64,000 nucleotides of DNA from an uncultured virus (IMG/VR IMGVR_UViG_3300044858_005455) (lineage: Duplodnaviria; Heunggongvirae; Uroviricota; Caudoviricetes), in IMG/VR virus record IMGVR_UViG_3300044858_005455. One strand, 5' to 3'. Of this stretch, positions 2,817-40,000 are shown one piece after another. Position 1 is the stretch's first letter. The number at the start of each line of letters is the position of its first letter. Below the pieces are notes generated by a model that had not been told where the DNA came from, did not search any database, and saw nothing but the letters and a program-made list of their open reading frames with translations. The translations under genes were made by a program, and so were the position numbers.

Positions 2817-3997
2817 TGCTTCCACTGAACATTGATCCGATGCCAATCCCTAATCAGGTAATAAATCTTATCTCCAATTTACCTCCGATTACTACATCTG
2901 TGGCAGGGGGTCAAATATCCCCTGGTGCGTGGGGAAGTTCGAGTTTTACAATTGGCACCAACCCCTTTGTCCTTACATCAATCACTCTTCGGTTTGCACA
3001 AATCACTGCAGCTACTCCACCTAACAATTTATTTGTCCGTCTCTATAACGACAACTCTGGGAATCCCGGCAGTGAAATAACCAGTTTTACCTTTACTAAC
3101 CCTGGTTCCATTACTACCACTACCGCCAATAATATTTTTACCCTTTCCACTCCGCAAACATTAGCCGCTAATACTACTTTCTGGTTAGTCGTTGGAAGTG
3201 GCAGTGGACAATATGTATGGGCTTTAACTAACTCTGTTAACGAAACAGGGGAGTCTGGCTGGTCGATTGGAAACAATAGTTCCCTTTTTAGTAGCAATCA
3301 AGGAGGAACGTGGACTTCTTATAATAATCTCTATTTTCAATTTAGCATTAACGGGCAAAGTTATTCTCTTGTTACTGGTGATCCTTATCTTCCCAATACC
3401 TCCCTACTTTTGCACGCAGACGGAGCTAATAATAGTACCAATATTATCGATAGTAGTTCCAATCCTAAATTAATTGCGAGGTCTGAAAATGTCTCAATTA
3501 GCACAGATCAAAGTCGATTTGGTGGGAGCAGTATTTTAATTAATAGCGGCGTGGTTTCCTCTAGTTCCAGCCTTGATTTTGCATTTGGTAGTGAGGATTT
3601 TACTATCGAAGGGTGGATATATTTACTGACAATACCTAGTTTTGGATTCCCTGATCTTTTTAGGACTACTGACGATCTTCTTTATATCAATTTTCGTCAG
3701 AGTGGTATTTTTGCTATCACGACAGCTAGTGCTATTATAGCTTCGTCTCCTTCACCTGTTCCGCTTAATCAGTGGAGTTATTTCGCGGTAACAAGGAGCG
3801 GTTCTGTTTTTAGGGTTTGGCTGGATGGAGTTGGCGGTACGCCTGCTACAGCTAATCTTACTTTTGCATCTACAGCTACTGCAATAAGATTTGGCAACGG
3901 AAATGTGCCGTTACACGCCTATATTGATGAATACCGCATCACCAAAGGCGTTGCCCGCGAAATTACTTTACCTACAGCCCCATTTCCTGATCTATGA
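2816..3997 (+). CDS. Putative receptor-binding protein: choice-of-anchor-R-like beta domain plus LamG/concanavalin A-like domain
   Basis: FTIGTNPFVLTSITLRF..LYNDNSGNPGS N-terminal block; GDPYLPNTSLLLHADG, DFTIEGWIY, W.YFAVTRSG and YIDEYRITKGVAR LamG motifs. Confidence 0.7.
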   Translation: MLPLNIDPMPIPNQVINLISNLPPITTSVAGGQISPGAWGSSSFTIGTNPFVLTSITLRFAQITAATPPNNLFVRLYNDNSGNPGSEITSFTFTNPGSITTTTANNIFTLSTPQTLAANTTFWLVVGSGSGQYVWALTNSVNETGESGWSIGNNSSLFSSNQGGTWTSYNNLYFQFSINGQSYSLVTGDPYLPNTSLLLHADGANNSTNIIDSSSNPKLIARSENVSISTDQSRFGGSSILINSGVVSSSSSLDFAFGSEDFTIEGWIYLLTIPSFGFPDLFRTTDDLLYINFRQSGIFAITTASAIIASSPSPVPLNQWSYFAVTRSGSVFRVWLDGVGGTPATANLTFASTATAIRFGNGNVPLHAYIDEYRITKGVAREITLPTAPFPDL

Positions 3998-4126
3998 TTC
4001 AAAATCTTTATTATCACGTCTTTGGAACTGCTAGAGAAAAAGCTTAGATGGAACTTAAGATAATCCCACTATTGCAGTTAAAACTGTTTTAGATTTGATA
4101 AAATACAGTAAAGCCAAGAGGTAATT

Positions 4127-4294
4127 ATGTCAGATCTAAAAGCTTATGTCGTTTCCTGTTCTGATGACAATATTCGAGTTGTTAACATGACCGAATTGGA
4201 GGCTAAAGACGCTAAAATTAAGGCTTTAGAAGATAAAGTGTATGAGTTAGAAACTCATATTAAATTATTAACTGACGAGCTTGATAAAGCATAA
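4127..4294 (+). CDS. Small coiled-coil protein (55 aa)
   Basis: GAGGT RBS then MSDLKAYVVSC...IKALEDKVYELETHIKLLTDELDKA; below the ORF-track cutoff. Confidence 0.55.
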   Translation: MSDLKAYVVSCSDDNIRVVNMTELEAKDAKIKALEDKVYELETHIKLLTDELDKA

Positions 4295-6450: not shown

Positions 6451-6523
6451 TGCAGGATAGCGGAATTGAACCGCTCTAAGCCGTCTTATGAGGACGGTGC
6501 CTCCACCTATCGGCCAATCCTGC
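6451..6523 (-). tRNA. tRNA with CAT anticodon (elongator Met or Ile2), no encoded CCA
   Basis: Reverse complement folds as a 73-nt cloverleaf: acceptor GCAGGAT/ATCCTGC, anticodon arm CCGTC-CTCATAA-GACGG, T-arm GGTTCAATTCC. Confidence 0.9.
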
Positions 6524-7349: not shown

Positions 7350-7499
7350 CTATATCTCCTTAATAATTAAGTGGCTACTCTCTTCACTACATGTATCGCT
7401 GGCGGGCTCTCCAGCAGATATTATTGATATCATCATATACATTAGAATCACTACGAACACAGTAAGGGTCACATATAAAGCTAATACTGTTTTTGACAT
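7350..7499 (-). CDS. Small membrane protein, paralog 3 (49 aa, internally deleted)
   Basis: Same upstream block; MSKTVLALYVTLTVFVVILMYMMISIISAGEPASDTCS... Confidence 0.55.
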   Translation of the reverse strand: MSKTVLALYVTLTVFVVILMYMMISIISAGEPASDTCSEESSHLIIKEI

Positions 7500-7901
7500 G
7501 CCTATATCTCCTTAATAATTAAGTGGCTACTCACTCTTGTCTATCTCTCTGCCTAGGTTTCGCTCGCATTTGGTAGCTTAATGTTTGTTTAAATATAGAT
7601 AAATACGGCGATATTTGCCGTATTTTCAACGCTGTATTAAAAACCCCAATTTTTATTGTTTAAATTGTTACATATTCTAACTGTATGTTATGGGCATATT
7701 TATCTGAGGTGAGAGAAGCTGTGGAATATTTAATTGATAAGTATAGCTTATCGATATACAATACTGTACTCTATACTAAGTGACGCTAGTATAGACTACA
7801 ATCAATAGTTAATAGATTTGTCTCAGGGGGTAGAATGGCACTCTGATGGTCATTGATAGGTTATGCTTATATGACGTTGTGGGTTTTGCTCTAACGCTGT
7901 A

Positions 7902-7974
7902 TGCAGAATAGCGGAATCGAACCACTTTAAGCCGTCTTATGAGGACGGTGCCTATACCAATCGGCCAATTCTGC
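7902..7974 (-). tRNA. Second tRNA with CAT anticodon, paralog of 6451-6523
   Basis: GCAGAATTGGCCGATTGGTATAGGCACCGTCCTCATAAGACGGCTTAAAGTGGTTCGATTCCGCTATTCTGCA; compensatory acceptor-stem change relative to copy 1. Confidence 0.9.
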
Positions 7975-8474
7975 TTGTTGGGAGGCCGTAGCTATGGTCT
8001 CATAGTCTATTATTTAGCAGTATACCTGCTGTGCTCCTATGGGGGCCCCGCTCGTGCTAAGGCCACTACTACGGGTTAGGGGCCCGCGGGCTTATCGCCC
8101 CTCATGTTGAGTTATTACTTGTTTGAGGGCCATGGATAGTGCGGGCCCGCAGTCTAACTCTACACGGTAGCTTATCACGCTATTGGCCTTGATCTTATCG
8201 TTCTTGAACCAATCATAACTGCGTTAGGCTCGAACTCACCGTATGCTTATACACTGGTATCCACTACGTAGCTCAGCGCTACACTTCCACAGTGAAATCA
8301 GTCTGGCCCGCGCATAGCAGTTGTGCGCCTTCTACACGATAGTATAAGGCACTGTTACTGTAATCGGCCGGGCCCACAACTATGCGCTGTAAGTCCTACA
8401 CAGTAGAACAAGTCTGAGTTAATGTGGCGCGTCTTGATATTTACGTTGTTTATGCTCAGGTTAATCATTGACGT

Positions 8475-8693
8475 TTATTTACTTAGAAGCTCTATTAGAT
8501 AATCAATGGAACGGATATTATATTCCTTATTCGAGCCCTTGGCCCGCCAGCGGTTACGCGTCGGATAGTAGTAGTAGAAGCGGCCCTTAACGTTGATGAG
8601 TAGAGACCCATTACCAACAGAGGACCATTTAATGCCGTGTTTATCTAGACATTCCTTAGCGTAATCAAACTCAGGGAAGTTTTCATTATTCAT
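8475..8693 (-). CDS. Small basic/aromatic protein, paralog A (72 aa)
   Basis: Start reassigned to MNNENF (ATG 8693) by alignment with the paralog at 9201-9440; YYYYP.RNRWRAKGSNKEYN. Confidence 0.75.
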   Translation of the reverse strand: MNNENFPEFDYAKECLDKHGIKWSSVGNGSLLINVKGRFYYYYPTRNRWRAKGSNKEYNIRSIDYLIELLSK

Positions 8694-8721
8694 GGGCTCA
8701 TCCACTTTAATTGATAGGGTA

Positions 8722-8750
8722 TTGACAGGGCGGGGGCCCTGTGCTATAAT
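8722..8750 (+). promoter_or_regulatory. Consensus sigma70 promoter
   Basis: TTGACA-17 nt-TATAAT with an extended TG; no ORF downstream. Confidence 0.85.
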
Positions 8751-8756
8751 ATACGC

Positions 8757-9180
8757 ATGTGTATAACACATCTGCAGACGTAAGGCGAAGCTTTATACTG
8801 CGTACGCCGTGCCCCTAACTCACGAGAGCACGAAGGGAATGAGGCCAGGACTGCCTCACTACCACCTGGGTACCCGACACCCACCTGCCATCGATAAGGT
8901 GATGATGGCAGGTAAGTCAAACGGCATACCGATAGGTATGTGGCCCCACACGGGGCGGAGGGGATGACCCCTTGCAGGCGGGAGGGGGCAGCGCACGCAG
9001 GTAATGAGAGCCACGGAGCAGCGACTGACTGGGGGAGGGACTCCCGTAAGGGAGTTAGACCTATCCTCTCCTCAGGATGACATATAAACCGCCCTTGGCG
9101 ATTCCCCCAATCGGGTGAAGCTGTTTATTAGACGCTGTAACCAATAATTTATTGGGCCGCCCCCGATAACGCGGGGTCCA
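8757..9180 (+). ncRNA. Candidate large structured non-coding RNA (~380-420 nt)
   Basis: ORF-free, GC-rich, directly downstream of a perfect promoter; many local hairpins and nested long-range stems (see findings). Confidence 0.65.
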
Positions 9181-9200
9181 CCACAGGCTCACAACAGGGC

Positions 9201-9440
9201 CTATCCCTCCCCTTTATAGGGGCCTATCCCGGAGAGGAACTCTATTAGGTGGTCGATAGAGTGTGTATTATACTCCCTATTGCTTCCTCTGGCCCGCCAC
9301 CTCCCCCGGCGCAGGTAGTAGTAGTAGGAGCGCTCTCCCACTGTGATGCGGAGGCACTCATCGCTGATAGGCACCCAGGGTATGCTGTGTGCATCTAGTC
9401 GCGCCTTAGCGTAATTTATATCATTACTCTCATTATTCAT
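9201..9440 (-). CDS. Small basic/aromatic protein, paralog B (79 aa)
   Basis: MNNE...YAK..LD.H.I.W...YYYY..R.RWRA.GSN.EYN..SID.LIE.LS shared with 8475-8693. Confidence 0.75.
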   Translation of the reverse strand: MNNESNDINYAKARLDAHSIPWVPISDECLRITVGERSYYYYLRRGRWRARGSNREYNTHSIDHLIEFLSGIGPYKGEG

Positions 9441-9806
9441 CGGCTGTTCTATTATATTGGCACATGTATTCTATCATTTGGCCGTCTAGACTATCGTATG
9501 GCAGTATTGTGTCCATTATTCTAATTGGGGCCCGCGGATAGTCCCTGTTCTATATCTGCTCTGCCCCCCCACCCTTATGAGAGTGGTTATAAGGGGGCTG
9601 TTATATTGATAGTCCACGAGGGGGAAGGGGGCCGCCCTATAATCAGGCGGGCCCCCCTCTACCGCAGGGCCCACTGTGTTATAACATCGCGGGCCCTTAG
9701 TATATGACAGTAGCTGAGCTGAGCTACACCGGCCGCGTACCGTCATACCGCCCACGTCAGCTCAGCGCGGGCCTTATGTTAGTTGACTGTATCCTCAATG
9801 TTGGGG

Positions 9807-9835
9807 TTGACGTCACTGTAGCGGCGTGGTATAAT
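9807..9835 (+). promoter_or_regulatory. Near-consensus sigma70 promoter
   Basis: TTGACG-17 nt-TATAAT with extended TG, pointing at the inverted-repeat block and the HNH gene. Confidence 0.75.
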
Positions 9836-10037
9836 GGATGTATTGGATTATAGAGATGCGGCCGCTAGACTATTTAGGCCCATCTTGCTAGCATATCCAC
9901 AAAATTAGCCTTAATAATCACCCCCCTTCACAGAGATGCGGCCGGTGCCCAGATAGCACCACTTATGGCCATCGAGGGTAATGAAGAAGGTACTAAACCC
10001 TACTAGGGATTGAAATTAATGTATATATGCTAGTGCT

Positions 10038-10255
10038 CACTGAATATCTGGTCAGTGAACATGATCTAGACCTACTGAATATCTGGCCAGTAGGTTGAAC
10101 CTATCCCTAGATTGCGACCCCCCCCTCCATCGGAGGCCGGGGTCGCAATCTATAGGGTATTTTCATTTACTTATCCCTGGGGCCCCCCTCCCCCCTTCCC
10201 CGGCCTCCGATGGAGGGGGGATCGAGGAGGGGCCGCCCCCAGGGATAAGTAAATG
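10038..10255. repeat. Nested direct and inverted repeat complex
   Basis: Two ACTGAATATCTGGYCAGT hairpins; 14-bp IR 10108-10121/10139-10152; 19-bp IR 10164-10182/10237-10255; 23-bp IR 10120-10142/10198-10220. Confidence 0.85.
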
Positions 10256-10329
10256 CCGGGAGCCCATCTCGTGGAGGCTGCCCGGCAACACAATAGTAAA
10301 AAAAGTAAGGAATACCCCCAGTATAACAT

Positions 10330-11019
10330 ATGGAAACAAAATGTTCAAGTAGCGGATTCGAACCTCGTCCATCTTATTACGCTATGCATATTATGCTAGG
10401 TGGGGCCCGCCGTTATCTCGCGGCTGCCACTATTCGTACCAATGCCAGTGGCTACCAGTACGTTCTCGCTAAGGAGAATAAGCGGCTATTCGACTATCTC
10501 GAGCAGTGCCGCTTCTTCGCGTTCCACTGCACTAACGTCCGTAAGGAGTTGGTATATGTTCACCAGATAGTGCTCTACATTGATAGGCGGCCCGCCGCTG
10601 GTTGGAGACGAGAACGCCGCGGTGAGGTCTGCCGCGCGGGCCTCATGGAAGTACATCACCTCGATGGTGATCCCTCTAACAATGACTATAGTAATCTCTG
10701 GTACGTGAGCCCCATCGAGAATAAACTCCTGGCCCACGCTACTCAGAATCCTGAGGTTATCGCTGACCCCTCTCAGTGGGTGGTACACTACGGTACCGAT
10801 AGTGGTGATATACGCCCCCTCGCTCAGTTCACCTGCCTGCTTGAGCGCACACTACAGTGCACTATGACGCGATTGGGCCTCGATTGGGCTCAGGAGAGGG
10901 TGCAGCGCTGGTGGCGGGGCCTACCTACTGATGCAGCTCGTCATCTCATGGCCGGCCTTAGATCTACTATCGACCCCCTACTTGATATATTCAGGAGGGA
11001 GCAGGCCGCCTGCGCATGA
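10330..11019 (+). CDS. HNH endonuclease
   Basis: YVHQIV...EVHHLDGDPSNNDYSNLWYVSPIEN is a canonical HNH (HNH_3-type) motif. Confidence 0.85.
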   Translation: METKCSSSGFEPRPSYYAMHIMLGGARRYLAAATIRTNASGYQYVLAKENKRLFDYLEQCRFFAFHCTNVRKELVYVHQIVLYIDRRPAAGWRRERRGEVCRAGLMEVHHLDGDPSNNDYSNLWYVSPIENKLLAHATQNPEVIADPSQWVVHYGTDSGDIRPLAQFTCLLERTLQCTMTRLGLDWAQERVQRWWRGLPTDAARHLMAGLRSTIDPLLDIFRREQAACA

Positions 11020-11050
11020 CGCTGTGACGCTGTGACGCTGTTGCACGCAC

Positions 11051-11290
11051 CTATCTTGAAGCTGTCCTCTCAATTACGGCGGGCTCCTCTTCGAATAGGT
11101 CATCACATAGCCTCTGACAATCATAGATCACGTACTGACTGACGGCAAACGCGCTGTCTGCTACCATGATATACCCGCCCTCTCCATCTGGTCTGATTAT
11201 GCCGCTTCTCTCTAGCTCCTCTGCCTCCTCTATAGTGATGGGGGGCAGGTATCTACCGTCTGTGGCTCGTATTGTATATTTAGTTTGCAT
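11051..11290 (-). CDS. Hypothetical protein
   Basis: 79-aa ORF overlapping the upstream gene in the leftward operon. Confidence 0.6.
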   Translation of the reverse strand: MQTKYTIRATDGRYLPPITIEEAEELERSGIIRPDGEGGYIMVADSAFAVSQYVIYDCQRLCDDLFEEEPAVIERTASR

Positions 11291-11687
11291 ATGATTTGTT
11301 TAGTCTCGTACTGCTTGCCCGCGCGGCTCTCTCTCTAGCCGCACCTATTATCTTATTGTCTAGTTCTCTGTAAAACTCGTGGTCCCCTAGGGCCATGAAG
11401 TAGCCCATCGCTTCTATTAGCTCGGGCCTCTCTCGGAAGTATTCTACTCTTCCTCCTCCCTCTAGATACCTCGTCAGTAATATCGCTATCTGTATACCTT
11501 CATCATTAGCCTCTATCCATAGATTCTTGAACGCTGTTGTACATATATTAATATCGTGCCCCATCTCTCGGGCCTTCGTTAATGCGTATCTCTCTAGTAA
11601 GGCGTATCGCATTAGAATGGGGAGATGGGCAGGGCCATACTCCTCTAACCATTCTGCTATTACCTCTAGTGCTGTATTTAGTTTCAA
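11280..11687 (-). CDS. Hypothetical protein
   Basis: 135-aa helical ORF in the leftward operon. Confidence 0.6.
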   Translation of the reverse strand: MKLNTALEVIAEWLEEYGPAHLPILMRYALLERYALTKAREMGHDINICTTAFKNLWIEANDEGIQIAILLTRYLEGGGRVEYFRERPELIEAMGYFMALGDHEFYRELDNKIIGAARERAARASSTRLNKSYAN

Positions 11688-17389: not shown

Positions 17390-20300
17390 TTAGAAATCAG
17401 GATGATCTTCAGCTTCAGCGAGCTCTAGTTTGTAGTCGCCGAGGTCGAGATGTACAGCAGTTGCGATTTCCAACAACTGCTTGAGCTGGGGGTTCCTGAC
17501 ATAGTTAGAGAACTCACTTACCATATGGAACACACTAACGGGAACTATATCGTCAGCGCCATAACTGGCTGCGTCATCCTGGGTCATAGGAGCAACAGGA
17601 TCATAGCCCTGGCCAGTACGACGGAAGGCTCCGTATATGGCAGACGACATGATAAGGCTATCGCGAGCGAAGTTGCCCCGTTCGAGAGCGCCGTATGTAA
17701 GAGTACGAGCACGGGCATTTATAAGCTTGTAGATTACCGCGGGCTCCTTAGCTAGTTTAGCAGGCATAAGGTCAGCCATAACCCGAGCAGGAGGTACACC
17801 ACTTCCTTGGCGATCCGTATCCGCAAGCTTAGTGGAGTTGGCAGAGTAGTATAACCCGTCTTGTGATGACTTATACATAGGTACGCCAGCAGCCCAGGCG
17901 CGGGCTGCTTGCACTAAGGTTGCCATAAAGATCTTAGCCTCAGGGGTATAGCCCCCGAGACCCATGCTTTCATAGACGAAACGCCAAGCGATAACACACG
18001 CCTTAAGTGCGTCGGTATCGACGCCGCTAGCGCGGTACATACTATCCCATGTCTGAAAGGCAAGTGCAGAACAGATACCATAACCAACACCTACGGCTAC
18101 TTTGTAGTGCATATGCACCTCAGCAGCGTCGCTGACGTACTTATCGACAGCGATAGCAGTAGCTACGGCCTTATCCCACTTAGTAAGGGATTTCTTGTCC
18201 ATCTTATCTTCATAGCTCATGAAGGCGAAGAACGGCAGGTCATCTGCTTCGTAACAGTAGAAGTAGCCGCCCATGCCCATGAGACTAGCATTGATAGTGA
18301 GGGCACTTTCAGCGTTAATACCATACTTGTGAGCATTAATGCCGCCGCACTGGTCACCATCAGCATCGCCTTCGTTAACGGCGTGCCATAGGAGAGGGTT
18401 GACCGTATAGTGTGCGACGAAGGCATCAGTAGTAGAGAACTTGACGCGGCCGCATAGGATGAAACCCATAGGAGTACGTTGTATCCCAATAATCTGGTCC
18501 TCTTTGACGCCAAGCATACGCACCATAGGGCAATCGGGGTGCATGAGAATTACAGGCACGCCATCAGCACTATGAAGCAGCGGGCTATAGCTGGTCTTGA
18601 CCTTACCAACGACCACATCGCCGGCGCGGGCCATACTTTTCAGAATGCCCTTGGATTTAACTATGGTGTTACACCATGTGCGTAAACCACGGCTGACCTT
18701 AGCAGTCATGGAATAGATTTTACTATCCAAACCGCTCTGGTCTTCAATCCCTACATCAGTAACGTAGGCCAGCAGAGTTAGAAGGTCTAACATAATGCCA
18801 GTAGCGGAGGCGCCAGAGAAGGTACCGAATGCACTCAAGGCCTTACCATTGATATGAAGGGAGACTTCATTACCGTTATTCTGAGCAACGATATCCACTC
18901 CATTGGGGTAGACGGTGGCAAAACGGTCTAGCAGTTTGCGGTCACTGCCAGGGGCGCTATCAGAAACGTAGTTGTTAACTACACCGATAATGTCCCGTAG
19001 ATGGTCACGGCCCTCAGTAGTGCTGATGTTAATGTGAGCAGCACAGTCTTTAGATGTGATCATGTTAACTATGGATATGACGTTATCGTACTTAACCTCC
19101 TCCATGAGCGCTTCGCCCCAAGCGCGGTTCTGTAGAGCCACAATACCGATCTGCTCCATAGTCATCTTGGAGAATGCTACAGACTCACGAGGAGTGGCTA
19201 TCTCGATATCGTACGGCAGATAGCCGTATATAACCTCTACAGTTTCTTCGATACGGACAGTGGTATCGTTGATATCGATTACCTTGATGTCATCGTTAGT
19301 TACTACGGAGGAGATGGAATCCCACAGGTCGCGGGCCATATCAAAGGAGATGACCTCTTTAACACTGGCCCCAGTATCATCAGTAGCCAGTTTGGCTCGA
19401 GCCCACTCAGTAAAGGTATTAGTCTTAGTCATGAGATCAATGACTTCACCAGTGGCATCGATAGTGAGAAGCGCCCCCTCAGGAGTATAGGTGCAGCCCC
19501 CCTTCTCAATGGCGAACATCTCTATGAGTGCGGGCCATCCCTTAGTGGTCTCGTTATTTAGGATGATATTCCAGGGTTGAGATAATCCATTAACGTCATA
19601 GGGAAGAGTAGTAAGCTTCTTCCCTAGACCGCGGAGTTTGAGGACCTGGTCACGCCCTACCATCTCGGTCTCAAGTCGAATAGTGACGCTATCAGCGCGG
19701 CCCTCGACGCCATTACGCGTGACAGTCCCGCCTATTACACGGATGTCCTGCGCGAATGTCTCGTTCTTCACTATGCAGTACTTGCCCTGCATAATGCTGA
19801 TGATAGGGTTACCAGGAGCATAAACCTGCCCCTTTGCCTTCTCTATCTTGCCTTCGATTACTTCTATGAGTTTACTCGTGGCGTCATCTAGATCATCAGC
19901 CATAAGAGCGCGAACTGAGCTAGGAATACGGAGTACGTGAAACTCCTTAGTTATGGTTTTAGCTACGGTGTATTCGAACTCGAGGTCGCGGCGTATAGCA
20001 GCAACACCGCTGCCAAAGCCAAAGCGGCTATTGGTGAATGCAGTGCGTAGATAGAGGCCACCACCACAACTATAGCTATCATCACCTAAATCAACGCGAA
20101 GTAGGCTATCACGACGACCTACCACTTCAGCACGGGTGTATTTACCAGAGCTAGGTGGACGGTTGTATACCTTAGTGGGCTTGCTGAAATCATGGATGGA
20201 GTATATCTTACCATCCTTAAGTCCGAGGAACATGGCTTTGGCGGCCGGCCCTACAGCGATCCATTCCGCATTGTACTTATCAGGTGCTGCTATGACACCG

Positions 20301-22489
20301 GCTTTGAGCGACAATTCAAGATCGCTGGGAGCAAGATTAGTGTTCTCTACTTGCAGGAAGGGGAAGGCCTTATCCCAAGGCTTGAACACGATAGGACGAG
20401 TCGTACCGCGATTAATCTCAAACAGAGACTGACCTTCTTTAGGTTGAGCGCCGTAGTTGATCTTCTCACGCCACAGGTTAGTTACCTCATTGAGGATAGC
20501 ACGCGCACCAGTGGCGTTATGCGCTACCTTCATACAGAGCGCTACAAGGGCTACACGACCACTGTAGTCTTTGCCTCCTACTTTAACTAGTTCATTAGCG
20601 ATGCGACTCTGACGACCGTCATTGACAGTACTACTATTAAAGTTGAAAGTAGTGTTACGGTTATTACCCTTGATGACAACACAGGGGCCCTCAACACTAA
20701 CAATACGGTGTTGTTTAATACACAGGCAGCCTACGAGAGCAGCCAGGTCATCACCAGACCACGTGGCTAATTTAGTGAGGAAGTGCTCACTATACATGCT
20801 AACTAAGCATTCGGTCTTAGTAGTATAGGTATGCTTGTCGTCTTCATAGGGAATAGACTTAGTTACACCTAAGTTAATGACCTTAGGATTCATTTTAGAA
20901 TCCGTGGTGTAAACAACCCGATGGTCTAGAAGCGCAAGGAACTTCTTACACATACGGTTGTAACCAGATACGACATAGAGAATCGGACCTTCAGGCAGAA
21001 GGTCGAAGTTATTAGCTTCAAACAAACGGGTTAGCTCTTTACGAGCTGCTGTGATGCGCGCCTCCTGCTTAGGAGACACGACTCCACCGAGAGTACTAGG
21101 GTCAGGAATTAACATCTCGATAATGCTTTTCATGGCAGTGCTAGTGTTGGTGGTATTGGTAGAGGAGCTATCACTCTCTAACCCCTTAGTAGGGGCTCCT
21201 GTGTTAGAGAGCGGGTGGGTAGGAGTTATTGCTGCGGGCGCCGCACCAATAAGACCATCAATTGCTTGAATGGTTAATGCAACAGCATCATCGTTGTTGA
21301 CACTATTGTTAAAGACAAATTCCCAGTCTAATAACGTATTAGTGTCATCATATCCAACGTCTTCAGCATATTCGCCATAGGTTTTATAATCGAGTACGCT
21401 ATCATCGAGACCTACGACTTCACGACAAATTGCAAGATCTAAACTATCTACCACATCCATCCATGCATCATCAGGACCAGGTGCCCCGCTTTCTATAAAC
21501 GCGGTCATGAGGTAGTGAATACATAAGAGGCGGGCCACTAACGATGGGTCGTACATAAGCAGAGCTGCTTCGTATTCATCATTCTCATGCTCAGTACCTT
21601 CGTAGAACGATTTAGTGTCATGCCATTGAGCCGAGCCCGCGCCAATAGCGGCCTCAGACACCAGAGCTATATCTAGGTCTTCAGTAAGACCTAGAGCTTG
21701 GCAGTGGTGGACAAGCTCGTGAGTTATCGCGTATATATCTTCGAATGAAGATACAGTAACGACACTGTCACAATAAGACGCTATGTTCCCTTGTACGAAG
21801 GTGACACCACATAGTTTACCTACGACTATCATGCGGCAAGCCAGTACATCACTTGGTAATTCTGGTACTACAACGCTCATACAGCGTTTAACGCGTGCTG
21901 CCTTATTAGTAGCTTTAGCAGCTTTAGCTATCGCTAAAACGGCTTTAGCGTTTTTAGTTTTGTACTTCTTGCCCACACATGTGCGGCCGTTGCCACGATA
22001 GTTTAGGCGCCCTTGGTCGAGGGCAGCGATAATACTACCAGCAGCATTATTAACTACGGTAGCAACGGCTTTAGTGCCGGTGCCGGTGTTAGTAAGACGC
22101 GAGGGACGCGCAAATACTGCGCTGACAGCGCGCAGTATAGGTTTGGCCTTACGTTGTCGTAAGATAAGTTTGTCTACGACGTTACGGCCGCGTAACACGG
22201 GTTTGCGGGCGGCTGAGGCTGCGGCAGCTGCGGCACGACGTAGCGCACGTCGTACTGATTTTACAACGCAGGGGCGTTGGCTTTGAGGTAGAGAGCGGAT
22301 GGGGCGGCCGGCTGACGCTATACGACGAGAGCGACGGCGTACTACGCGATTAGCGCGACGGCTCGCTATCTGCTGAGCGCGGCGACCAGGGCCTACACGT
22401 CGTGCAGTAGTGCGAGCGGTTGCGATAACGGCGCTGATAGAGGCTACGAGAACATTGGATTGGAAGACGATAGAGTTGATGGTATTCAT
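17390..22489 (-). CDS. Putative single-chain two-barrel (double-psi beta-barrel) RNA polymerase with a basic N-terminus and a zincin-like motif
   Basis: IGIQRTP...YTVNPLLWHAVNEGDADGDQ matches beta' NRxP...IQLHPLVCAAYNADFDGDQ; KLRGLGKK...NIILN resembles beta GDKxxGRHGNKG...DIVLN; HELVH at aa ~257. Confidence 0.72.
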   Translation of the reverse strand: MNTINSIVFQSNVLVASISAVIATARTTARRVGPGRRAQQIASRRANRVVRRRSRRIASAGRPIRSLPQSQRPCVVKSVRRALRRAAAAAASAARKPVLRGRNVVDKLILRQRKAKPILRAVSAVFARPSRLTNTGTGTKAVATVVNNAAGSIIAALDQGRLNYRGNGRTCVGKKYKTKNAKAVLAIAKAAKATNKAARVKRCMSVVVPELPSDVLACRMIVVGKLCGVTFVQGNIASYCDSVVTVSSFEDIYAITHELVHHCQALGLTEDLDIALVSEAAIGAGSAQWHDTKSFYEGTEHENDEYEAALLMYDPSLVARLLCIHYLMTAFIESGAPGPDDAWMDVVDSLDLAICREVVGLDDSVLDYKTYGEYAEDVGYDDTNTLLDWEFVFNNSVNNDDAVALTIQAIDGLIGAAPAAITPTHPLSNTGAPTKGLESDSSSTNTTNTSTAMKSIIEMLIPDPSTLGGVVSPKQEARITAARKELTRLFEANNFDLLPEGPILYVVSGYNRMCKKFLALLDHRVVYTTDSKMNPKVINLGVTKSIPYEDDKHTYTTKTECLVSMYSEHFLTKLATWSGDDLAALVGCLCIKQHRIVSVEGPCVVIKGNNRNTTFNFNSSTVNDGRQSRIANELVKVGGKDYSGRVALVALCMKVAHNATGARAILNEVTNLWREKINYGAQPKEGQSLFEINRGTTRPIVFKPWDKAFPFLQVENTNLAPSDLELSLKAGVIAAPDKYNAEWIAVGPAAKAMFLGLKDGKIYSIHDFSKPTKVYNRPPSSGKYTRAEVVGRRDSLLRVDLGDDSYSCGGGLYLRTAFTNSRFGFGSGVAAIRRDLEFEYTVAKTITKEFHVLRIPSSVRALMADDLDDATSKLIEVIEGKIEKAKGQVYAPGNPIISIMQGKYCIVKNETFAQDIRVIGGTVTRNGVEGRADSVTIRLETEMVGRDQVLKLRGLGKKLTTLPYDVNGLSQPWNIILNNETTKGWPALIEMFAIEKGGCTYTPEGALLTIDATGEVIDLMTKTNTFTEWARAKLATDDTGASVKEVISFDMARDLWDSISSVVTNDDIKVIDINDTTVRIEETVEVIYGYLPYDIEIATPRESVAFSKMTMEQIGIVALQNRAWGEALMEEVKYDNVISIVNMITSKDCAAHINISTTEGRDHLRDIIGVVNNYVSDSAPGSDRKLLDRFATVYPNGVDIVAQNNGNEVSLHINGKALSAFGTFSGASATGIMLDLLTLLAYVTDVGIEDQSGLDSKIYSMTAKVSRGLRTWCNTIVKSKGILKSMARAGDVVVGKVKTSYSPLLHSADGVPVILMHPDCPMVRMLGVKEDQIIGIQRTPMGFILCGRVKFSTTDAFVAHYTVNPLLWHAVNEGDADGDQCGGINAHKYGINAESALTINASLMGMGGYFYCYEADDLPFFAFMSYEDKMDKKSLTKWDKAVATAIAVDKYVSDAAEVHMHYKVAVGVGYGICSALAFQTWDSMYRASGVDTDALKACVIAWRFVYESMGLGGYTPEAKIFMATLVQAARAWAAGVPMYKSSQDGLYYSANSTKLADTDRQGSGVPPARVMADLMPAKLAKEPAVIYKLINARARTLTYGALERGNFARDSLIMSSAIYGAFRRTGQGYDPVAPMTQDDAASYGADDIVPVSVFHMVSEFSNYVRNPQLKQLLEIATAVHLDLGDYKLELAEAEDHPDF

Positions 22490-25947: not shown

Positions 25948-26271
25948 CTACTTAACAAGGATGTAGTTGATGTCGAACTGGAGTATATCCTCCTCCGTCC
26001 ATCGTTCTCCTTCTGCCAACCGCCGAGGGCTGACAAATAAACATACAATATACTCGGCCCCTGGGGGCACCTGTACCCGATTCACGGGTACGGTTACTCC
26101 GAGACGGGCGGAGAGTAGCTCCGCCGTAGAGAGGTGCCCTATAGCACTTGTCCAGTCAGTAATGGAGAGGAGAGCGCGGGCCTCTTCCTCTGAAATACAA
26201 GTGCTGGTTATAACCCCACCTGGTGTGGTGGGGTACAAAGAATTGGGAAAAGAGTTCAAAACGTAAAGCAT
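25948..26271 (-). CDS. acrIII-1: DUF1874 (STIV B116/YddF) family protein = AcrIII-1-like cA4 ring nuclease anti-CRISPR
   Basis: Start at ATG 26271 after AAGGAGG; MLYVLNSF...SAIGHLSTAELLSARLGVTVPVNRVQV...RRLAEG has the family's YxLNxF, SAIGH, NR and RLxEG motifs; His at position 46. Confidence 0.85.
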   Translation of the reverse strand: MLYVLNSFPNSLYPTTPGGVITSTCISEEEARALLSITDWTSAIGHLSTAELLSARLGVTVPVNRVQVPPGAEYIVCLFVSPRRLAEGERWTEEDILQFDINYILVK

Positions 26272-26452
26272 AATCTCCTCCTTAGAGATAAGGTTCACTA
26301 CGAGGAAAAAGGGACCCGAGGCCCCTCCTTATCTACTCTACTTATTTAGCTCCGCTCACTCACGGTGGAGCTTCGCTATTTTCTGCCTTATCTGTTCCAT
26401 CTCGCGGCGTAAAGCCACGAGATTAATAACAGGAGCGGGGCAGCGTTGTTAA

Positions 26453-33813: not shown

Positions 33814-34082
33814 CACTCTCAGACTACAGACTCACATACGAGATAACATCACTACCGACTATAATATTCGCTGGGATGACCGCGGCGGATGAGCCATTTC
33901 ACTTCACTCGCTTTGAGGTGCCCCCCATTAATGGTCCCATCGAGTGCCGCTTTTCACTATTCGATAAGTCAGGTAATTTGATAGAGTTATCTAATCAATA
34001 TGTGCACAGTACTACGCTAGTGGCTACCTGCAATATAGTGCCACTGCGTATGATAGAGAAGCTAGTTAAACCAGATCTATAG
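33807..34082 (+). CDS. Hypothetical protein
   Basis: 91-aa overlapping ORF. Confidence 0.55.
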   Translation: MVTLSDYRLTYEITSLPTIIFAGMTAADEPFHFTRFEVPPINGPIECRFSLFDKSGNLIELSNQYVHSTTLVATCNIVPLRMIEKLVKPDL

Positions 34083-37000
34083 AGTAACTCTCGCTCTCAT
34101 CTCGATAAGCCATACTATTGGGACGGTCCACTGTTAGGTCGCTCATGTAGAGGGCGTCATAAGTGTCGTATTCATCACCATTGAATATAGTTTGTACGAA
34201 GAACTCAACAGGGGAGCCCGTGTCATCCACGACCTCGGTTTCAGCATTATCCTCTCGTTCCATGCGAGCTCGATTCATACCTTCTTGAGCAGCGCGTATA
34301 CCGGCGCTAACAGCATCTAGAGCCGCGGGGGCTACACTACGCTGCATGCTGACCTCTAACCCACGGTGGAGTAACTTATTTACGAAGCCTGCTGATACGA
34401 GACTCAATGCCCCCGTGATGACGTTGCTAGCTACATTACGCAGGCCCGCGAATGGATCAGAGTCTATTGTAGGAGCCTTACCGAGTGTCTTCTCTATGAA
34501 TGGGTTGATGATATAGCGGCCTGCGAGTTGAGCTGTTGCGCCAAAGGCTATTTCCTGTGCTAGTAGCATACCGACACCAATTGTATAGTCTTCGTGTAGT
34601 TGACCTGCTAGGCGGCCCTTGAATCCCATACTCATCAGAGTACCTGCGGCGAAACGTCCCATCTGGTTACCTGCTGGGGCGCTTACGTAGGCCATAGCGC
34701 CTAGCATATTACCCATAGTCTGCTGCATTGCCTCGGGGCGGGCTCCGCCACTACTAATCATATCTCCTGCCAGTGCCATTAGGGGGAATAGAAGTACATC
34801 CATTAGATTACCGGCAGTATTGTTAAGAATAGGTAGATCATCTGCTACGCGCAAGAGGGGGCGGTCTGGTCGCGGGCGAGGGTCCAGTGGATCCACATCA
34901 GGAGGTGAGCCGGCTAGTAGGTAGTCGCGCCGACGAGCTGCTAACTCCTTAGCCCTATCTGGAGCGACACCCATATCCTGTAGCAGTTTTATATAACGCA
35001 TATCGACGTCACGGCTCTCATAATCTCGTAGCTCCTCTACTAGTCTATCAGCTGTATCTACCTGCTGACCTAGTGCTGTAGCGCGAACATAAGTAACCAA
35101 TCGACTAGTGGCCGCCTCATCTGTGAGAATTGTCTTCTGAATAAACTCTATTATCTCCTTATCAGCTGGGCTAGGGGTACCGCTATTGAGTAACACACTA
35201 AAGATATCTGCTATTTCATAGCGCTTACCATCAGCGTGAGTGAAGGTATCCATAAGAGACTCGAGGGCCCGTGTTACCTGCTCAGGCTCGTTTATCTTCC
35301 CGGCCGATACAGCCTGTAACAGTGATCTAACTAGCGGACTAGCTCCTGAGCCAGTAGGGTCACCAGCGGCAGTAATCAGATCCTGACCGAGTACATCCTC
35401 TAGCTGCCCTCCGTATAGTGTGGAGCGGGTACTATCATTAATAGCGAAGCGCAGTAGTTTACTGCCATCAGTATTGGCCCAGAGTGATGCGCTCTCCCTA
35501 CTACGTAGGAAGTTCATAGCTAATATACGCTTAGTATCCGTACCCATGTCCTGGAAGCGCTTATCTCCTATTACATCACGAGTGAAGTTCTGGAACTCTT
35601 CTACTTCTATCTCCATCTCGGTGAGGCCATTAGTGATGCCGCCTGCTATGAGAGCATCTATCTGAGCGGCCCGCGCGGGCTCACTATTTATGTAGGTCTC
35701 TACACTCTCTGCTAGGCCTCTACCAGAGCTAATGGGGTTTCCTGCCTTATCGGTTGGCATAGCCCGCTCGAAGGCGAATACAGCCGTCATACCTACTAGG
35801 TCCTGTCGTAGTTGATAGCTGGCTATGAGAGCGCGGCTATGAGTACCTATCTCATCTCCTCGCAATACACTTAATCGACGAGATAAATCTAACTGCTCAG
35901 TCTCTCCAATGGATAGCTTAGTCAGTAGATCATTAATCTTAGAGTCCTGGGCATCATTAGTAGCTGATGCCAGTAATTCTTTATGGGCCCCTATATACGC
36001 ATCTAATTTAAATAGAGGAGTTATAGACGGTAGTAGTCTATTCATATCATCCACTACACGCTGGCGCTCCACATCATCGACAGCATCTACAAAGCGCTTA
36101 TGGTACTGTGATAAGTTCTCTAGGAACTCAGCACCCCCCATCTTAGGCTTAATAGCATCCCGCAGCATTTGTTGTATCTCTTGCAGGAATGTGCCTACCT
36201 CGCCTACCTCTGTTCTACTCTGGCGGGCCAGTCTCTGTATATCCGCTATCTTACTATCGGCCTCTAGGTTAGCATCACTCGCGCTCATGCCACTTGCCAT
36301 ACCCTGATCGATTAGTATACGACGTATGTCATCCTGTAGGGCCGAGCTATTCTCTAGTGCATGAGACACAGCCATGATGGGGGAGCGCTCGTATAGCATA
36401 CCCACGGTAGTGTTATACGTCTTACCGAGGATTACACTACCTGCCTGACCCAGTACCTTCTGCATCATGTCGAATTGGCCGCCGCTCATTACACTACCAT
36501 CAGCGCGCTTCATGTACTTACTGAGATTATCGCGGGCATTAACGGCAGTTAGTCTATGTAGGAAGTCATATGCTTTCTCTTCCTGATCGTTACCTGTAGC
36601 GCTCAGGATATCATGTAGACTAGCCCGCACGAATGGTCCCGTATCAGGATTATTAACGAGATCGGTTAGTATGTTCTGGTCTGTAGAGGTAGATAATCTA
36701 TTAACTATATCAACTGCACTATCAGTTCTACTCTGCTGTATTAATTCTAATAGGGACTCATGGGCTGGCTGTATACGTGCGTATACGTCCTCCATCATAC
36801 CGAAGAGACCACGGGCCTGTTCTACTAGTACCAGGGCATGCTCTATACCTCGCTGTTCCAGCATACCCTTATCTAATTTCATATAGCCCGCTACCCAGCT
36901 ATACACTGAGTCGGTATACTCATTCCAATTAGCGTTAGTGGTTACCTGCTGTATAGTATCCAGTAGAGCACTGGCGCGCGTTTCTAAATCACTAGCTTGC

Positions 37001-40000
37001 TTCTCTAGAATGGTACGCTTAGTGGGATCAGCGGCCTGAGATGCCATCTCCCGCCGCTCCTTGGCGCGTTCCAGTATATCATCACGCTGCAACTTCATCT
37101 GAGAGTAATTGAAGAATATAGCGCTGAAGGTATCCCCATCGAAGTCCCCTAGGTTACTAGTTATAAAGCTGATGGGATTAAGTAGAGTCAACGACTTATT
37201 ACGAGTATCATCAAAAAAGTTAAAGCCACTGCCAGTCAGGTCTCGGTATATGCTATTGATACTATTGAGTGTATCTAACGCGAACACCAGCTTATCGAGA
37301 TGGGTGTTACCAGGGGGCGGGCTACGTTGAATCCAGGCTCTCGTTAACTCCAGCTCAGTGAAGAACATACTCATATCAGCCTGCAGAGTACTATTCATTA
37401 TGAATAATGAATCGCGCACCACACGATTAGCCTTTACAGAGGGCTCGATAACAGAACCATCTGGGAGTGTAACAACTGTAGCTAGTTCTGTTATATAGGC
37501 AGCCTTTGCATCATTTACCAGCTTCCTATACTGAGTTATGAGAGCTACGCCTCTATTATGTAAATCAGTGCCCCGCGGGCTCTTACCTTCTAAATACGTA
37601 TCTACAGCAGAGGTCACGGCATTAATAGTTCTCTCTAGACTATCTAGTCTAGTAGAGAATGTATTCAGCATCTCAGCACCATCCTTACCACGCGTATCGC
37701 TGAAGAAGGATAGGTCTATGGGATTCTTACGTGCACGACCCTGTAGTAGATCCAGGTTATCAAATCTATTACCTAATGCATTAGTATCAATGTAGATCCG
37801 CATATTATCAGGTATAATAGAGCGGGACGGGCCCTGACTACCTATCATGAGCCCAGAGATAATAATAGGTAAGTGACCCAGATCTCTATACTTATGAGTC
37901 TCAGCTCCAGGCAGAGATTCCAGTATTGTGCCCATCTCGACTTCACCTAGAGTAGATACTAGAGAATCCCCGCTACCGCTGAATTTCATGCTACTGAATC
38001 TATCCATCTCGACCTTAATTTCTGTCTCTAGTTGAGCGTATTCAGATGCCTGTAAACCAGGAGCCAGTTTTTCTATACCGGCTATCCTACTCTGGAAGTT
38101 CTTACTTTTATCTACTATTGTCTCTAGCCCATACATACCCGCTATACTGAGGCCTTCAGTTATAGCGTGTATCTGCTGTTGTATTAATCTGCGACCAATT
38201 TTCTTACTACCTGACTGGCTAATAACAGACAGGTTATCCTTAAGATAGTCCCCTAATCTACTAAGTATCTCCTCTCGTGTCTGACTACCTCGCGTACCGA
38301 AGCGCTCCATAGTGGCCTCTGCTAGTACGGCGCCGCGCACAGGTACATACCAGCTAGCGGCCCCCACACCGGTAGTACCTGTTACGCCTATCTTATTACC
38401 AGTGATAGGCTGCAGATATGCGCTCGCCAGGTCATTATAAACGCGGGCCTCATAGGTGCTATTGAGTTCCTGGAACCTAGTCAACTCCTGTATCTGGAAG
38501 TCACTGAGGCCTTCTAGTTCAATAGTAGTCCTCGAACTAGACTCAATGGCTACCTTCTCGAAGATATCGCGTACTGTACTACCGGGGGCCAGCATAACCC
38601 ATTTATCTACCGTAGCAGCAGCTATCTCATTCTCGTGGCTACCGAACTGAATACCTGCTATTCTCACATCTTCAGGACTCAGGATAAATCCCCTCTCCTT
38701 AATAGCTGTATTGAATACAACGTTATTCCCCTCTATACGGAAGGAGGGAAACTCATAAGCTATACGACGAAGACCCTTCTGGCCCATTGACTGCACGGTA
38801 GCTTCAGTGGCCTCTACACCCAGTACCTTATCCCCTGCTAGACGCCAGCGGGATGCATGGGCATATATATCATTCTTCAGGACACGAAGTGAATGGCGCA
38901 CTACATTACGTAGAGTATCTCTATCAGTACCCGCAGGTTGCCCCATCCATGTAGCTATCTCATCAAGTATAGTATGAGTAACATTAGTAGTATCGGGGCC
39001 CGACCCTCTAGTATATGACACCATGTCAGTATCACTGGCACTCTCGAGTAGAGACAATGCAGTGTGGAACTGCCTGTATCGTTCGCGTAGATTAGTTATA
39101 TCGCTTAGTGGGGCCCGCGCATCATTATACACTCCTAGTAATATCTCTCCTAGCGTAGAGTTAGCGTGAAAGTCTAGACTAGCCAGGTCATACATAGGAA
39201 TATCATCCACCACTATCTTATTGGGGTCTGCCCCTATGGCCATCTTCATGACGCCAAGTATAGCCTTACGCATACTATCGACACTACCATCACGCTTGAA
39301 TTTATCCACGTTAGCCATGAAGGGACTAGATACTATATGCTGCATTTCTAGTTGCGCAGTGTCCTTACTACTCAATGGCACCTTAGAGCTACTACCCATC
39401 ACGGCATTATATAGCACTACATAGCGAGAGTAATTACTCAATCTATCGAGCATAACGGCCACGTTCTCCTGGCCTACGCTTATCTCATCTGCCTGCGTAA
39501 CACCTGCTATAGCGCTCATAGCCGCATACGCATGACGAGATATACTATCGCTACCAGTCACTGGTGTAGTCTTGAGCTCTAGGGTATTATTAAGTGACAT
39601 GAGCTGCATCATAATCTCTAGGTTACCGGCTATAGCAGCACGCTCAAAGCCTCGACCCATAGCTCCAGTATCTACATAACCCCTGCGCGCTGCATCTGCT
39701 GCATCTACTATCAGAGCTACCTTATTAGATAACGCCCCGCTACTAGTTCCACTACGCAGAGCTGTCATTATCTCTGATATATCAATGGCCCCTAGAACAG
39801 GACTCTGTAGTCTATTAATAGCACCATCGCTCCCGCGTACTAGCTTCTTACCTATTTCGAGATGAGGGGGTCCATCTCCTAGCTTATCACTCTGCATAAG
39901 TTCCAGCATAGTAGACATATAGAGGTCACGATAGTAATTACCGAGCCGCCCCTGCGCTGCCAACTGTGCTATTTCTATATAGACACTATCTATATTGATA

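Follow-up and report, generated by a model that had tools for sequence, protein, structure and literature searches.

Several kinds of virus-borne RNA locus are relevant to the element that is the subject of this study. Racrs are highly expressed non-coding RNAs that phages encode directly behind a strong promoter and away from cas genes; passages of their description present them as short mimics of the repeats of CRISPR arrays (PMC10651486). Mini-CRISPR arrays carried by viruses have been described as part of inter-virus conflict (PMC6858448). GOLLD and ROOL are large, GC-rich, multi-hairpin RNAs of phages and prophages found near tRNA genes. Additionally, 6S RNA, RNase P RNA and transfer-messenger RNA (tmRNA) are abundant structured bacterial RNAs that are sometimes copied by phages. 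Here we analysed a 64,000-nucleotide stretch of DNA from an uncultured virus (IMG/VR record IMGVR_UViG_3300044858_005455), which we call the window, and in it a putative RNA gene, RNA1, that lies at about 8757-9200 behind a promoter that we call P1. The window comes from a Fukuivirus, a Microcystis phage akin to Ma-LMM01 and MaMV-DC.

RNA1 resembles a Racr in placement and probably in expression: it lies directly 3' of a promoter in a virus, with no Cas family found in Pfam scans of 33 window proteins (30 open reading frames (ORFs) up to 46980 and the three neighbours of RNA1). It also sits where sister phages have host CRISPR repeats, and a second promoter, P2, precedes a solitary and incomplete copy of the repeat 0.8 kb downstream. 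RNA1 differs from Racrs in its length of 370-440 nucleotides (nt), in having no similarity to the host repeat (of the type found in Ma-LMM01), and in having no match to a CRISPR-DR family of Rfam. If RNA1 acts against CRISPR, its mechanism would have to differ from repeat mimicry. The virus-borne mini-arrays are matched by arrays in the sister phages, whose spacers hit the same locus of close relatives; unlike those viruses, the window has no array. RNA1 is also large, GC-rich and rich in hairpins, and lies near tRNA genes, as GOLLD and ROOL do, but it is smaller, occurs in part of one phage genus, matches no Rfam family and has no covariation support. With 6S RNA, RNase P RNA and tmRNA it shares a similar size range, a strong constitutive promoter and high conservation; in contrast to them, it has no match in Rfam or with ARAGORN, and a covariance model of its first predicted domain (185 nt, 8808-8992) found no cyanobacterial homologue (0/151 genomes for the order to which the host belongs and 0/151 for its phylum; as positive controls, the window scored 240.7 bits and the record G001 238.4 bits). 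HEARO, the omega RNA of IscB, gave no Rfam match at RNA1, and the nearest HNH protein differs from IscB: it has 229 amino acids (aa) and HNH_3 only, is encoded 1.1 kb away behind the other promoter, and is present in phages without RNA1 too. Thus, RNA1 is a new, narrowly distributed RNA in a known kind of locus, outside every Rfam family. The literature that we searched, mostly outside subscription journals, held no account of RNA1 or of the mini-arrays of these phages.

A preliminary description of this DNA had reported a TTGACA-17-TATAAT promoter, and P1 is indeed present as described, matching all 12 consensus positions with a TG before the -10 element. It is the sole 12/12 site among eight promoter-like sites in 7500-11000, a region for which shuffled sequences gave 5.2 sites. 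Ma-LMM01, MaMV-CH01 and MaMV-DL01 also carry P1. The same description held that no ORF follows the promoter. This stands for gene-like ORFs and fails for short ones, as ORFs of 42-58 aa do exist. We checked these across eight aligned homologues. A 42-aa ATG frame (8839-8967) has non-synonymous changes only and a stop in one homologue (L007), and an insertion of one base puts 8940-9080 out of frame in two (L006 and L007). Of three frames on the minus strand, those at 8757-8920 and 9061-9192 are broken; the remaining one (8859-9014) is intact in 8/8 and shows three non-synonymous and no synonymous changes. A protein-coding reading of RNA1 was dropped on these grounds.

Motifs of tmRNA, RNase P or group I introns had not been seen in RNA1 beforehand, and the family searches agree with this. 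No Rfam family, group I and group II introns included, reaches gathering level over RNA1; among the 4227 models of Rfam 15, the window's lone gathering-level match is a tRNA at 7902-7974. At E <= 10, a search of 8600-9350 gave a single 27-nt chance match, which scored 10 bits where gathering level would require 108. ARAGORN found no tRNA or tmRNA at RNA1 and reports just two tRNA-Met genes near it (6451-6523 and 7902-7974). The core of RNA1 (Table 1) has a GC content of 59.9% compared with 47.3% in the window, a value that ranks among the top 0.13% for windows of 344 nt. Its plus strand has 84 A and 54 T, and G exceeds C on the transcript strand.

The sequence of RNA1 is present in RNA libraries. 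Thirteen RNA-labelled runs from six studies contain 63-100% of its sampled words. Four runs from four studies were mapped on 7400-11400 as assembled contigs, and RNA1 is covered by contigs in all four. In run X1, a single contig of 1091 nt begins at 8767 and extends as far as 9830; contigs begin at 8773 in run X9 and at 8790 in X17, and one contig of X8 covers 8824-9314. Neither the X1 nor the X9 contig has a loose end listed at its start. These two starts, from two studies, are six bases apart and lie 17-23 bases 3' of the -10 element, which is a weak hint at a transcript start at P1. Two further observations carry no weight as evidence, since neither holes nor contig depths can rank genes: the bins from 8472 to 8739 have no contig cover in any of the four runs, and the depth of the contig starting at 8767 is 439, compared with 2.5-11 for other phage parts and about 49 for the HNH gene. 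In sum, the view of RNA1 as a phage RNA of possibly new class holds with regard to the phage DNA, the promoter, the want of a credible frame, the lack of an Rfam match and the presence in RNA libraries; contigs that continue past 9200 make this position a tentative 3' limit. We believe that RNA1 is very probably a real, transcribed RNA gene.

RNA1 is an accessory element, found in part of the genus Fukuivirus only. In a BLAST comparison of 8700-9250 with a phage collection, matches were confined to Fukuivirus records, and RNA1 matched only its own kind (the nearest virus record has 22% of the window's sampled words in common). MaMV-DC (two records) and MaMV-DH01 matched 87-90% of this query at 94-95% identity and are the isolates that hold RNA1. 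Ma-LMM01 (two records), MaMV-CH01, MaMV-CH02, MaMV-DL01 and MaMV-DL02 gave only a 57-base match, which comprises the promoter and the first bases 3' of it, and lack RNA1. Beyond the isolates, RNA1 is present in 10 IMG/VR contigs and in 6 of 10 metagenome loci, which are partly the same contigs. Loci retrieved by way of the small protein encoded beside RNA1 came from the same phages, from a metagenome contig without RNA1 (L060) and from two remote loci without RNA1.

Outside these phages, RNA1 was absent from everything searched. There was no match in the plasmid collection, 185,579 species genomes lack a 20-mer of the core, and there is no second copy in the window or in G001. No diverged homologues were found; exact-pattern scans of IMG/VR gave only copies of 95-99% identity, and a scan with an 18-mer of the leader added two chance matches in unrelated phage genes (L069 and L070). 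BLAST of five Microcystis genomes found no copy of RNA1, with matches at chance level only. The best host match (19/20 nt at 9092-9111, E about 0.27 per genome) lies inside and antisense to argJ. As a side observation, 9092-9111 is complementary to the argJ mRNA (19 matches and one G-U) in all five genomes, which is probably chance. The idea that RNA1 is the template of a diversity-generating retroelement was dropped, there being no second, variable copy in the window, in G001 or in the isolate genomes.

The carriers together with the window yield 11 unique RNA1 sequences. When ten carriers were compared with the window segment by segment, the core was the best-conserved segment of the locus, with a sharp drop in identity at 9115/9116 (Table 1). 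This invariance holds even where alleles of the neighbouring gene differ by about 25% of bases. The pattern fits strong purifying selection on nearly all positions of the core.

The hairpins claimed for RNA1 in the preliminary description are readable in the sequence and are found in the minimum-energy fold. Of three long-range pairings that it considered possible, the fold contains 8773-8781 with 9132-9139 and 8798-8807 with 8991-9000; the pairing of 8782-8797 with 9083-9096 is absent from it. The folding energy of 8757-9200 is -179.8 kcal/mol (z -3.96), better than that of shuffled controls, and the region 8772-9140 reaches z -4.76; in both cases, 0/100 shuffles were as stable. Two domains are predicted: the first, at about 8808-8992, is a multi-junction of six hairpins, and the second occupies about 9014-9128, with closure by a long-range helix. 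This division into domains is a prediction from energy alone. Five changes among the carriers fall on predicted paired sites. Three of these (8909, 9026 and 9112) turn G-C into G-U pairs on the plus strand and would be A-C mismatches if read on the other strand. The variable tail may be the 3' end of RNA1 or a terminator in common with the convergent gene.

The position of RNA1 is occupied by something else in the sister phages. In Ma-LMM01, homology with the window stops at 8777 and is followed by three copies of a 36-nt unit; Microcystis genomes hold exact copies of this unit, with as many as 107 repeats in an array. In MaMV-CH01 and MaMV-DL01, P1 is followed by a repeat, a 39-nt spacer and a second repeat, and directly 3' of this second repeat comes P2. 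These cargoes of Ma-LMM01, MaMV-CH01 and MaMV-DL01 are phage-borne mini-arrays without cas genes (4058-4235, 3057-3169 and 3057-3169 of the retrieved loci L002, L041 and L042, respectively). The array of Ma-LMM01 is annotated merely as a '56 bp repeat unit' with small hypothetical ORFs. The array is replaced by RNA1 from base 1 of its first repeat onwards, and the exchanged block, about 8778-9803, includes the gene of the small protein 3' of RNA1, paralogue B. RNA1 and the mini-arrays are thus allelic. At least two repeats and a spacer are found together in the sister phages and not in the window, where the full 36-nt host repeat (searched for the Ma-LMM01 repeat type only) has no match at up to three mismatches. 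The 12-nt motif at the 3' end of the repeat occurs only at 10004-10015 and 18742-18753, outside RNA1.

The spacers of the mini-arrays point back to this locus. The spacer of MaMV-CH01 and MaMV-DL01 matches the P1 region of MaMV-DH01 and Ma-LMM01 in 39/39 positions, and that of the window in 38/39. A GTH protospacer-adjacent motif (PAM) is given for M. aeruginosa's type I-D system in passages of PMC10212523, and the GTT that precedes the protospacer at 8726-8764 fits it. MaMV-CH01 itself has several mismatches to its own spacer in its P1, next to the PAM. In MaMV-DC, an inverted loop in the P1 spacer removes 10 of the 39 matches; this inversion may represent escape from the spacer. The first spacer of Ma-LMM01 has matches of 34-35/36 in all other Fukuivirus records, including the window (9931-9966). 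The locus is thus a fast-changing hot spot of RNA-based conflict, of which RNA1 is one alternative cargo. The possibility that P1 is a copied host CRISPR leader was tried and dropped, since five host genomes gave weak matches only, at the start of an unrelated gene. One metagenome contig adds a further arrangement: L060 (1-4046) holds paralogue B and P2 without paralogue A (the small protein 5' of P1), P1 or RNA1, and at RNA1's position it has AT-rich DNA that ends in a degenerate, inverted unit resembling the CRISPR repeat. A better copy of this inverted unit lies directly 3' of RNA1 in MaMV-DC and MaMV-DH01, and it has been lost from the window.

Based on these results, we propose a model in which RNA1 is a stand-alone accessory phage RNA gene whose product acts, by means of its fold, in a conflict centred on CRISPR. 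We prefer this model and hold it tentatively, at somewhat less than an even chance. In the first part of our model, the host RNA polymerase with its primary sigma factor would start at about 8757 from P1, a promoter of maximal strength, presumably transcribing RNA1 in the plus direction. The product would run from 8757 to about 9200 (about 370-440 nt), with a short 5' hairpin followed by a compact, GC-rich, two-domain fold. In the second part, RNA1 would act in trans via this fold and, without base pairing, would bind and titrate or mis-assemble a protein. Action in trans through the fold is suggested by the accessory status of RNA1 and by the mini-arrays behind the same promoter in sister phages. 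RNA1 likely works on a protein via its three-dimensional fold because no target complementarity was found and nearly every base is constrained. Among the ribozyme, scaffold, decoy and guide options raised at the outset, a guide or antisense role appears least likely, judging from the sequence, because five Microcystis genomes and the phage collection hold no sequence of meaningful complementarity. The final part concerns the target, which may lie within a CRISPR-centred conflict of the phage with Microcystis or with a rival phage. The partner is likely to belong to CRISPR or another immune conflict because of the position of RNA1, and the likeliest targets would be Cas proteins or their complexes, or some other defence that senses nucleic acids. 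That RNA1 functions in defence or competition is quite possible, if short of probable; that it is specifically a decoy directed at Cas proteins seems unlikely.

Several observations weigh against this model, and we consider them together with the alternatives that they favour. Position alone connects RNA1 with CRISPR, there being no resemblance between its sequence and the host repeat. The assembled contigs carry no strand, ends or reliable levels. RNA contigs extend past 9200, to 9314 in X8 and 9830 in X1, and so do not delimit a discrete species of 430 nt, and no plus-strand terminator-like site was found in 7500-11000. Continuity past 9200 could be either read-through from P1, which would fit the lack of such a site, or overlap with the mRNA of the convergent paralogue B gene. 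RNA1 might be no gene of its own but the folded 5' portion of a longer, cis-acting transcript from P1, serving as an antisense regulator of paralogue B or as an attenuating leader of the downstream block and the HNH gene. The contigs that bridge 8767-9830 and 8824-9314 are in keeping with this, as is the arrangement in Ma-LMM01, where P1 lies about 330 bp upstream of the HNH gene (gp051) and this gene is highly expressed in infection (Table S3 of PMC5780444). However, neither a leader nor an antisense RNA would call for 98.5-99.4% identity over 344 nt when the gene under its control varies down to 74%. Conservation ends at 9115, before paralogue B, and P2 is able to drive the downstream block alone. 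The contigs also merge strands, so that convergent transcripts of paralogue B can explain their continuity. We regard this explanation as unlikely.

Other points concern the fold. The reverse strand folds equally well (z -3.93), which means that the strand cannot be read from energy. Compensatory double changes are seen at 0/130 predicted pairs, in a sample whose 11 variable core sites among 11 unique sequences give no power, and changes at 8781 and 8887 break pairs. Most hairpin stems are perfect Watson-Crick palindromes, as DNA palindromes would be. Between phages there are exact inversions of loops with unchanged stems (the P1 spacer in MaMV-DC, GTAA to TTAC at 9046-9049 in L004, and the tail hairpin at about 9163-9172), and such inversions are a signature of template switching or hairpin-mediated inversion at the DNA level. 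Near-identity of the core could also be due to recent spread by recombination. These features would be expected of a recently spread DNA element, either a palindrome cluster or the remnant of a mobile cassette, that lies behind P1 and whose transcript has no function of its own; the patchy distribution within one genus, in a mosaic region beside an HNH endonuclease, is also in its favour. A recent sweep is less apt as an explanation, however, because it would be expected to bring the flanks along, yet identity falls sharply at 9115/9116 and the paralogue B alleles beyond are 25% apart. The GC content and the surplus of purines in the transcribed strand are in keeping with an RNA. Additionally, the element shows no sign of mobility: there is no further copy in the window or G001 and none in the five hosts or the plasmids, and the core 20-mer is missing from the species genomes. 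We consider it rather improbable that RNA1 is such an element.

It has to be asked whether RNA1 could be a new ribozyme, a multimeric RNA particle of the sort that other large phage RNAs form, or a primer or R-loop RNA for replication. Near-invariance over 344 nt is more typical of dense tertiary or catalytic constraint than of simple helices, the predicted multi-junction is compact, and G exceeds C on the transcript strand. Nevertheless, no known ribozyme family is matched, sister phages do without RNA1, so that it is not an essential origin, and transcription converges at the locus. This explanation is therefore given little weight. Last, it is scarcely credible that RNA1 encodes a small protein, for example from the 42-aa ATG frame, as the frames of 42-58 aa show stops, shifts or breaks and the one minus-strand frame that is intact throughout has no synonymous change.

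The defence systems of the bloom-forming cyanobacterium Microcystis are unusually numerous, and toxic blooms are shaped by its phages. In a bolder version of our model of a stand-alone, trans-acting RNA, which we consider unlikely, RNA1 would be made in bulk from the time of DNA entry and would disable a Cas complex or immune sensor by mimicry or sequestration. Its targets would include Cas complexes armed by the mini-array of a rival, and RNA1 and mini-arrays would be swapped as alternative weapons. The exchangeability of RNA1 with mini-arrays suggests RNA-based counter-defence beyond repeat mimics; in the same doubtful version of the model, no earlier anti-defence factor would be a large RNA other than a CRISPR-repeat mimic. 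RNA1 would also be a compact new target for studies of RNA structure, and metatranscriptome studies of blooms could overlook such a transcript. The MaMV strains all infect M. aeruginosa FACHB-524, of which one type III-B system has been expressed in Escherichia coli (passages of PMC11855584).

Table 1. Features of the RNA1 locus in the window. Identity is the range over ten carriers of RNA1, with the window as reference.
Feature	Position	Strand	Identity	Remarks
Paralogue A, small basic protein, 72 aa	8475..8693	-	94-99.5%	Divergent from P1; phrog_27453, E 6e-46
Promoter P1	8722..8750	+		Perfect -35, 17-bp spacer with palindrome, TG-extended perfect -10
Protospacer for MaMV-CH01/DL01 mini-array spacer	8726..8764	-		38/39; GTT 5' on that strand
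Predicted transcript start, 5' hairpin and CTGCAG joint	8757..8777	+		Last segment common to mini-array phages
RNA1 core	8772..9115	+	98.5-99.4% (10/10 carriers)	Two predicted domains
Variable tail	9116..9197	+	82-99%	AU hairpin (9140-9154); GC hairpin (about 9154-9183), its loop inverted between phages
Paralogue B, small protein, 79 aa	9201..9440	-	74-99.6%	Convergent with RNA1; phrog_27453, E 4e-28
Spacer DNA 3' of paralogue B			73-93%	
P2 block	9807..10329		78-83%	
Promoter P2	9807..9835	+		11/12, TG-extended
Protospacer, reverse complement of first Ma-LMM01 mini-array spacer	9931..9966	+		35/36 bases (97.2%)
Solitary 3' part of host CRISPR repeat (hairpin and handle)	9994..10016	+		Behind P2; exact 12-mer 10004-10015
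HNH endonuclease gene, homologue of Ma-LMM01 gp051	10330..11019	+	94.6-97.2%	PF13392, E 2.4e-6, above cut-off; phrog_28475

The genes that flank RNA1 encode two small basic proteins, paralogues A and B, which are 55% identical. Paralogue B faces RNA1, and transcription at the RNA1 locus is convergent and not divergent. Paralogue A adjoins P1 whatever the cargo and is always divergent from it; a role as a regulator or as a partner of the RNA is possible. It belongs to no Pfam family. Its AlphaFold model (predicted local distance difference test score 88.6) consists of a helix, five strands and a helix, and a comparison of this fold with the PDB gave no match at E <= 0.001; the top rows, weak ones at E 0.1-0.2, come from a splicing endonuclease and RNase H3 and are domains that bind nucleic acids. 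The small-protein family as a whole has only 12 representatives at E <= 0.001 and no informative Pfam domain. Both paralogues have this confidently modelled fold and a conserved motif, YYYY..RWRAKG, and the tyrosine run is doubled in the homologue P0006.

Downstream, the non-coding block is bounded by the HNH gene. The P2 block (9807-10329) is free of ORFs, folds with z -9.09, contains long perfect inverted repeats (10108-10255) and is covered in parts by contigs from RNA libraries. In Ma-LMM01, expression values are available for this region from PMC5780444, in log2 fragments per kilobase per million mapped (FPKM). The HNH gene gp051 reaches 13.2 at 3 h and is among the highest expressed (Table S3). 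Among the rows gp001-gp073, gp051 and gp052 have the top values, about 13.2 at 3 h, and they alone are clearly above zero at 0 h, at about 6. The ORFs that lie over the mini-array, gp049 and gp050, have values of about 9 at 3 h (Table S3); the passages of this source that were searched do not mention the mini-array.

Farther away in the window, two giant ORFs on the minus strand (34066-44793, 3575 aa, and 17390-22489, 1699 aa) have no Pfam match at E <= 0.001. A 116-aa protein encoded at 25948-26298 on the minus strand matches PF08960 (STIV B116-like, E 1.9e-12) as well as the PDB chains AFV3-109 and viral 'protein 114'. We take PF08960 to be the family of the viral ring nuclease AcrIII-1. This protein may give the phage a protein-based counter to type III CRISPR signalling.

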